Origin: a virus | Length of the DNA stretch: 26,823 bases | Direction: 5' to 3' (one strand) | UHGV virus genome: UHGV-0250493 | Shown here: positions 22,619 to 22,960 of the stretch, piece after piece | Layout: the number at the start of each line of letters is the position of its first letter | How positions within the stretch are numbered: the first letter of the stretch is position 1 | Translations under genes and position numbers: made by a program | Notes under the pieces: generated by a model | Database searches by the model: none | Seen by the model: the letters and a program-made list of their open reading frames with translations, nothing else | Told to the model about the DNA's origin: nothing

Positions 22619-22623
22619 AACAT

Positions 22624-22721
22624 AAAAAAATCCCGCAGTGATCGCGGAGCTGCGGGGACAGACAAATGAAGATCAATGTTAAGGAGTTGTTTTTGTTACT
22701 CGGGCAAAAAAACACTAACGC
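22624..22721 (-). ncRNA. candidate small RNA (about 100 nt) in the I-J intergenic insert
   Basis: Minus-strand sigma70-like promoter (-35 TTCACA 22755-22750, 16 nt spacer, -10 TATAAT 22733-22728). Minus-strand intrinsic terminator: stem CCCGCAG/CTGCGGG (22632-22656) followed by seven U. No ORF of meaningful size between them. Transcript contains the CA-rich stretch AACAAAAACAAC. Confidence 0.4.
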
Positions 22722-22829
22722 AGCGAAATTATAAGCGCCACAGTCAGTGTGTGAAAATGTGAAGATATTCAGAATTTTTATGCCATTACCGGTTTTAACC
22801 AACAGGATTATCGGTGGGCATGAAAGAAA

Positions 22830-22864
22830 ACCCCGGTATCTGCTGATACCGGGGTTTCTCTTTA
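22830..22864. terminator. strong hairpin, possible bidirectional terminator upstream of J
   Basis: Perfect 10 bp stem CCCCGGTATC-TGCT-GATACCGGGG flanked by T-rich tracts on both strands (TTTCTCTTT on +, TTTTCTTTC on -). Confidence 0.45.
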
Positions 22865-22960
22865 GCATGGCAGAAATGTGTTTCATGCTTTTCGGGCGAA
22901 GGATATCCGACTTCTGTACGGAATGGCAAGTGGCGGTTAATTTATTCAGGGGAAGGCTGT

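Follow-up and report, generated by a model that had tools for sequence, protein, structure and literature searches.

A prophage element between tail genes I and J identified by sequence as the small RNA PasB

In bacteriophage lambda, the tail genes I and J are separated by a gap of 60 bp. In the window analyzed here, which is the whole 26,823-nt stretch of virus genome UHGV-0250493, the I-J gap is 342 bp, and the original prediction of an insert larger than the lambda spacing at this site is borne out. Two plus-strand genes frame the gap. The tail assembly gene I (21938..22618), an ORF that matches phrog_32 'tail assembly protein' with an E-value of 6.5e-79, forms the 3' flank of the minus-strand sRNA gene described below, and the tail tip/host specificity gene J (22961..26434), an ORF of 1157 aa that matches phrog_31 'central tail fiber J' with 1060 bits, forms its 5' flank. 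What does this additional DNA encode, and how would its product act?

Identity of the element between I and J

The minus strand of the gap carries both a promoter and a terminator, as had been predicted. The sigma-70 promoter lies at 22755..22728 and consists of a -35 box TTCACA (22755..22750), a 16-nt spacer and a -10 box TATAAT (22733..22728), an 11/12 match. The intrinsic terminator lies at 22656..22624, where the arms CCCGCAG (22656..22650) and CUGCGGG (22638..22632) enclose an 11-nt loop and are followed by an A and a run of seven U (22630..22624). Scanning of positions 21500-24000 for promoter-like sites returned four where 1.4 were expected, and a generic terminator scan of the region returned two where 2.2 were expected, that is, no excess over chance. 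The terminator site is validated not by this generic scan but because its 3' end is identical with the mapped, published 3' end of the sRNA PasB. Promoter and terminator are kept across 43 distinct sequence variants of the locus: the -35 box is unchanged in all 43 intact variants, the -10 box reads TATAAT, AATAAT or GATAAT, and the terminator stem is unchanged in each of the 25 variants that were aligned. The proposal of an sRNA gene with its own promoter, running antisense to the tail operon and ending at the predicted terminator, is supported, and all of the features described with it were found where they had been placed or within a few bases.

By its sequence, the element between I and J is PasB, an already known sRNA. 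PasB (E2348CN_0006) is the pathogenicity-associated sRNA B of prophage PP6 in EPEC E2348/69 (Pearl Mizrahi et al. 2021, Sci Adv, PMC8550237), mapped as an 83-nt RNA to the minus strand of NC_011601.1 at 1466343..1466261, between E2348C_1436 and E2348C_1437, with its orientation given as '(> <) >' (Table S6, PMC8550237). The Northern probe listed for it, AATCCCGCAGTGATCGCGGAGCT (Table S6, PMC8550237), is 23 nt long and has one exact match in the window, at 22629-22651, where none was expected. The published form of PasB corresponds to 22624..22706 on the minus strand, and 82 of its 83 positions are identical to the E2348/69 RNA. The context agrees as well, such that both copies lie in the I/J intergenic region of a lambdoid prophage on the strand opposite to the tail genes, within the same L-K-I-gap-J layout, and share location, antisense orientation, promoter and terminator. 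Between the end of I and ~22785, E2348/69 and the window differ at one base, 22680, whereas the DNA of E2348/69 from the pasB promoter to J is another 175-bp module than that of the window. The single differing base is position 27 of the 83-nt RNA, a C in E2348/69 and an A in the window. The difference between PasB and PasB-2 has been placed at position 27 (Zhu, Shabalina and Storz 2026, bioRxiv 10.64898/2026.05.13.724894), and the window copy is probably the common variant 'PasB-2'. A 98-mer identical to that of the window is found in the O157:H7 Sakai prophage Sp12 (2217630-2217727), between ECs_2235 and ECs_2236.

Names for this RNA were also sought elsewhere. An Rfam search of the sRNA interval, put forward as a check with the original prediction, matched no family; this applies both to the whole window at the gathering score and to the region together with four sister alleles in E-value mode. 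A literature search for an EHEC name of the RNA found no paper mentioning ECs2236 or ECs2237, and among the EcOnc entries available there was none at Sakai 22175xx-22177xx.

The properties of PasB in EPEC have been described in some detail. A Northern signal was obtained at the size expected from RNA-seq, levels were higher in overnight static LB than in DMEM, and the RNA was destabilised in an hfq mutant, with log2 fold changes of -6.8 and -2.4 (PMC8550237). In the same data, baseMean values were 482-1082 for PasB compared with ~5 for I and ~15 for J (PMC8550237). With I and J nearly silent and PasB abundant, PasB is therefore expressed independently from the repressed prophage, as a moron.

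In RIL-seq chimeras, the RNA2 position is the signature of a canonical Hfq sRNA. For PasB in EPEC, 37 interactions were recorded, and PasB was RNA2 in 99-100% of the chimeric fragments (PMC8550237). Partners under the activating condition were bfpB, bfpI, ftsZ, galE, ler, perB and rplX, and the ~40 rows for the non-activating condition include E2348C_2648, yhhX, hflX, the napF 5'UTR, map and fabR, as well as caiF, the tolC 5'UTR, espC, ffh and gshA (Table S3, PMC8550237). A genetically validated target was not found in the literature on PasB. By analogy with the EPEC copy, with which these properties were demonstrated, the window copy would be an Hfq-dependent RNA that forms chimeras with mRNAs.

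Transcript architecture and the pairing region

Where does the RNA begin? The predicted primary transcript spans 22721..22624 on the minus strand and is ~98 nt long, with its start placed 7 nt downstream of the -10 box. This prediction is based on promoter geometry, together with a conserved 5' hairpin that needs 15 nucleotides more than the published form contains. The published 5' end, which corresponds to window position 22706, was estimated from coverage and blot size and yields 83 nt (PMC8550237). It falls 15 nt short of the promoter-based end, and if 83 nt were the true primary length, the 5' hairpin could not form. The two lengths would be reconciled by processing to the 83-nt species, or else by imprecision of the coverage-based end; a primary transcript of ~98 nt is probable from the modeled structure.

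The 5' stem-loop occupies RNA nt 3-36 (22719..22686, minus strand), and in the predicted fold of the 98-nt form the U-run at nt 8-16 pairs with the CA-rich stretch AACAAAAACAAC at 22697..22686. RNAalifold analysis of 25 variants gives a 5' hairpin of 12 pairs, four of which are changed on both sides, with 96% of the cells paired; one compensatory pair is A-U in 15 sequences and G-C in 10. The covariation score of the whole two-helix structure was reached by none of 500 shuffles, and slid controls were 40-62% paired. These compensatory changes trace to a few allele lineages and are read as support rather than proof. The overall fold stability of the RNA is unremarkable (z -0.9).

This architecture bears on the stretch AACAAAAACAAC, for which a role as a single-stranded mimic of sRNA targets had been suggested. 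The stretch is indeed present, but given the predicted 5' end it is not single-stranded, being the 3' arm of the covarying hairpin. Nor does it stand out as a pairing site, for it is the part of the RNA body least complementary to the RIL-seq targets. Because it is paired in the covarying 5' hairpin, the CA-rich stretch is probably structural rather than a sponge site, and sister alleles carry other A-rich sequences in its place.

Which part of the RNA, then, would contact mRNAs? The target set comprised 16 regions, the ten PasB targets best supported by RIL-seq and six weaker ones. Global RNAduplex comparison of PasB with these regions was too permissive, producing whole-length pseudo-duplexes, and k-mer and longest-match analysis was used instead; for each PasB position, we counted the target regions holding the Watson-Crick complement of the k-mer that starts there. 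From these counts over the 16 targets, we infer that the stretch from the 5' hairpin to the terminator, not the CA-rich stretch, is the pairing region. It corresponds to a single-stranded seed at RNA nt 37-60 (22685..22662, minus strand) made up of S1, UCCUUAACAUU (22685..22675), and S2, GAUCUUCAUUUGU (22674..22662). Complement counts peak at nt 37-45 of the 98-nt RNA (UCCUUCACA), and the complement of CCUUCA is held by six of the ten top targets, a number equaled in one of 500 and one of 300 shuffle runs. The counts peak again at nt 49-56, with UCUUCA at nt 50-52. The longest matches include 16 nt with napF (GAAGGUCAAUGUGAAG) and 11 nt with fabR/yijD (AAUGUGAAGGA), and the six weaker targets match mainly nt 45-60, as in tolC (11 nt, GCAAAUGAAGA) and ydbJ (UGAAGAUCAG); taken by itself, this six-target hold-out set is not significant in the k-mer analysis. 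The PasB sites overlap the start codon in napF, caiF and tolC, and the Shine-Dalgarno sequence of yijD, rplX and the phage gene RS14200. Many mRNAs contain GAAGG motifs of the Shine-Dalgarno type. S2 agrees with an earlier proposal of a seed 'just upstream of the terminator' (bioRxiv 10.64898/2026.05.13.724894).

The one base that separates the window from EPEC (22680, A versus C) lies in the middle of S1. With the S1 of the window, the 6-mer matches to most targets are lost, including those to napF, caiF and fabR/yijD. Judged from these matches, the window PasB and EPEC PasB probably have overlapping but not identical target sets.

Taken together, we favor the view, at a probability of roughly 0.85, that pasB is a 'moron' sRNA gene of lambdoid prophages, lying antisense between I and J and repressing mRNAs in trans. 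The gene is bounded by its strong sigma-70 promoter and intrinsic terminator, and in such a mechanism the RNA would consist of the 5' hairpin, a single-stranded seed of ~25 nt, UCCUU[A/C]ACAUU-GAUCUUCAUUUGU, and the terminator, whose U7 tail would bind Hfq. In EPEC, PasB is always the 3' partner in its chimeras with mRNAs on Hfq, and its seed would pair with sites that contain GAAGG or AUGAAGA, often over the Shine-Dalgarno sequence or the start codon, as suggested by the sites in napF, caiF, yijD, tolC, rplX and a phage gene. PasB would then most likely block the translation of host and virulence mRNAs in trans by covering their ribosome-binding sites.

Alternative roles for the antisense RNA

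One alternative, raised with the original prediction, is that PasB is related to the anti-sRNA AgvB and acts as a sponge, the CA-rich stretch mimicking the mRNAs that the GU-rich R1 seed of GcvB binds and thereby titrating GcvB. AgvB is an RNA of 51-60 nt that is encoded downstream of PR' and carries the GcvB-target consensus CACAACA (Tree et al. 2014, PMC4104026). Likeness to AgvB and AsxR (EcOnc01/EcOnc02; RF02702/RF02703; EHEC; PMC4104026) is real in general terms, since all of these RNAs are prophage-encoded, Hfq-bound and short, end at an intrinsic terminator, and combine conserved terminator ends with variable pairing regions; moreover, the CA-rich stretch taken alone forms a -9.4 kcal/mol duplex with GcvB R1. 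However, the AgvB locus is the PR' moron site near the lysis genes, whereas pasB occupies the I-J gap ~17.5 kb downstream of the STnc100/tRNA region, and its 83-98 nt exceed the 51-60 nt of AgvB. CACAACA does not occur in the PasB transcript, there is no sequence or covariance-model similarity, and the Rfam AgvB model RF02702 has no match in the window at the gathering score or within 22500-23100 at E<=10. Membership in the AgvB family was rejected on these grounds. The duplex of complete PasB with GcvB is no better than that of shuffled PasB (z +0.4 to +0.6), the CA-rich stretch is sequestered in a conserved hairpin and exchanged for other A-rich sequences in sister alleles, and PasB is always the 3' partner of mRNAs; its recorded partners are mRNAs, in contrast to the sRNA target of AgvB. 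No gcvB::pasB chimera occurs in the RIL-seq rows covered (both whole PasB blocks, the activating sRNA-sRNA rows and the tail of one gcvB block), despite the abundance of GcvB and its many partners in these data. A sponge for GcvB is therefore very unlikely.

A second possibility is that the RNA acts in cis, as an antisense regulator of the I-J late transcript or of the mRNA of a 22-codon ORF, thereby controlling J or a toxic peptide. By construction, PasB is fully complementary to any plus-strand transcript across 22624-22721, and its location just upstream of J is conserved. The 22-codon ORF, which had prompted the idea of a type-I-like pair, is present on the plus strand at 22666..22734, but 30 of 45 distinct variants lack its ATG, indels in an A-run shift the frame in the remaining ones, and the other peptides are 17-36 aa long in different frames. 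It has no PHROG match and its peptide is not hydrophobic. With the ORF not conserved and no family match, it was rejected as a gene and type I toxin-antitoxin membership was rejected with it. The gap also holds no plus-strand promoter-like site. In EPEC lysogens, PasB accumulates and contacts its targets in trans while I and J are barely expressed, and the portion of the RIL-seq table (PMC8550237) that was available has no row for I, J or their intergenic region. Control in cis as the function of the RNA is accordingly improbable; an additional antisense effect may occur during lytic growth, and nothing marks it as the main role. Finally, pasB in the window could be a silent or decaying copy without a role. 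Some relatives do carry IS insertions in the promoter, and no sRNA is listed at the coordinates of the identical 98-mer in the available part of the Hfq-CRAC list for O157:H7 Sakai. Against this reading, the window copy has an intact promoter (11/12), terminator and seed S2 that do not differ from those of the expressed EPEC gene, and 865 E. coli records preserve the arrangement with at least 99% identity, such that a dead copy seems extremely improbable. A trans-acting moron sRNA remains our preferred reading of pasB.

The claim that no real ORF lies in the gap stands biologically, though not mechanically: a 141-codon minus-strand ORF (22560..22985) spans the whole gap and takes in the hairpin upstream of J, the pasB promoter and PasB. 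No PHROG matches this ORF, and it is almost certainly not a gene. Plus-strand ORFs of 66-77 codons over the hairpin were likewise rejected, showing neither conservation nor a PHROG match. Over 22780-22980, the annotation of phage ASU11 places a 'hypothetical protein' on the plus strand, without support.

Surroundings, distribution and sister alleles of pasB

The hairpin that had been reported just upstream of J is present on the plus strand at 22823..22863, with a core CCCCGGTATC/GATACCGGGG at 22831-22854 that extends, through flanking A- and U-runs, to ~18 bp. It is outside the sRNA PasB, has a z score of -2.6 and is terminator-like on both strands. In 66 loci it lies at a fixed 81 bp from the pasB promoter block. 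A mobile palindromic element was considered and rejected, as 1.18 Mb of related loci contain the hairpin nowhere but at this spacing from the pasB promoter. E2348/69 lacks the segment 22786-22960, which is at least 99% identical in 1442 E. coli records; alternative right-hand modules carry another plus-strand hairpin followed by TTGTTTTT, and the 60-bp I-J gap of lambda has a different hairpin, then a U-run, at the same place. For this reason, namely a comparable hairpin in lambda and the fixed position, the long hairpin is, from sequence comparison, best seen as the usual lambdoid I-J intercistronic structure, with pasB as an insert in the stretch from the end of I to this hairpin. The hairpin could serve as a terminator for RNA polymerase that is not Q-modified, or as an RNA stability element. 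The hairpin was compared between the window (22823-22863), L086 and L152 (760-790); the IMG/VR locus L086 is without the long hairpin, having a ~47-bp deletion between the short repeats GCATGAAAGAA and GCATGGCAGAA.

On the other side of the promoter, an alignment of 10 loci reveals a highly conserved block (22745..22785) over and upstream of the -35 box. It includes the CRP-like site TGTGAAGATATTCAGA at 22758-22773, the sole window match with at most one mismatch to TGTGA-N6-TCACA, of which ~1 is expected by chance. Its center lies ~44.5 nt upstream of the predicted start (-44.5) rather than at -41.5. A regulatory role for the block or the site is a candidate lead only; the pasB promoter may be controlled by CRP, and if so, this would explain the higher PasB level in glucose-free stationary LB.

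How widespread is the element? Of 5426 complete E. coli genomes, 1612 contain a match to the 361-bp query region, and the best phage matches are PPompW-type and Stx2a prophages. In a scan of species representatives outside E. coli, the promoter block was found only in E. albertii. Two contigs from unrelated bacteria, of Asaia platycodi JCM 25414 (L022, 546 bp) and Streptomyces flavalbus (L024, 3408 bp), carry E. coli prophage sequence, most likely through assembly contamination. In L022 and in another locus, L055, pasB is broken a few bases downstream of the -35 box (TTCACAAACTGA|ACCGCCCCGGGAATCC...), apparently by insertion of an IS element that would silence the sRNA, and one further locus has an insertion within the right-hand module.

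Related loci were collected from IMG/VR with the conserved upstream 25-mer TGTGAAAATGTGAAGATATTCAGAA, which yielded more than 120 loci and the 43 distinct intact variants referred to above. In these variants the terminator stem, the -35 box and its upstream block do not vary, and the body of the RNA occurs as alleles with different seeds, for example UCCUUCACAUUGAUCUUCAUUUGU, UCCUUACACUUAAUCUUCGUAAC and UCUCUAUAGUUAAUCUUCGUAAC. Roughly 600 complete E. coli genomes carry divergent alleles. One sister allele, ~80% identical over the RNA, is among the 604 E. coli records that match the 361-bp query at 90-95%, and its longest exact word shared with PasB is 24 nt. The published PasB survey used a word size of 28 and a query coverage above 75% (bioRxiv 10.64898/2026.05.13.724894). 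As 24 nt is shorter than this word size, the divergent allele was probably missed by that survey. The alignments suggest sister alleles with swapped seeds as one modestly new point. We tentatively propose, at less than even odds, that pasB is one allele of a 'seed-swapping' cassette in which the promoter, upstream block, 5' hairpin architecture and terminator are constant across dozens of prophage variants and a seed of ~25 nt is exchanged.

PasB can be set beside other prophage sRNAs, namely PasA, PasC, PasD, STnc100, DicF and IpeX. Like PasB, these have their own promoters, are expressed from a repressed prophage, depend on Hfq and have core-genome mRNAs as their targets; their sequences are unrelated, however, and PasB is the one located inside the tail operon. 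The Northern probes for PasA, PasC and PasD have no match in the window. STnc100, which has been linked to PasD by structure (bioRxiv 10.64898/2026.05.13.724894), is found in the window at 4959-5149 on the plus strand (Rfam RF02076, 133.7 bits), just downstream of two plus-strand tRNA genes (4536-4608 and 4619-4692), all three within the late-regulatory (PR' moron) region of this prophage. In Sakai Sp12, EcOnc51, a PasA homologue, lies between the large ORF ECs_2262 and the holin gene. The corresponding spot in the window, 7639-7784, does not align to Sp12 and has no PasA probe match. It contains a strong plus-strand terminator with a 12-bp stem (7710-7738), and a different sRNA allele may reside there. 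J is split in Sp12 into three ORFs (ECs_2233 to ECs_2235; 13918-17392 of locus L145), whereas the window J at 22961-26434 is an intact 1157-codon gene. By these comparisons, the window prophage is a better-preserved relative of Sp12, ~96% identical to it over the tail region.

The window copy of PasB adds no new kind of element, and what it does add is modest, namely the divergent-seed alleles and a probable 98-nt primary transcript. In EPEC, PasB is among the most connected accessory-genome sRNAs on Hfq, and its partners include virulence regulators and structural genes (ler, perB, bfpB, bfpI, map and espC). O157-type prophages such as Sakai Sp12 and the PPompW-like phages have an intact PasB copy whose sole difference from that of EPEC is in the seed. 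The locus appears to be a hotspot for the exchange of sRNA seeds between related prophages. If the tentative seed-swapping model holds, the one-base difference of the window would already retarget half of the seed, and each prophage would bring a differently aimed Hfq sRNA. None of these points is surprising in principle; they offer testable leads for how prophages rewire the post-transcriptional networks of their hosts.
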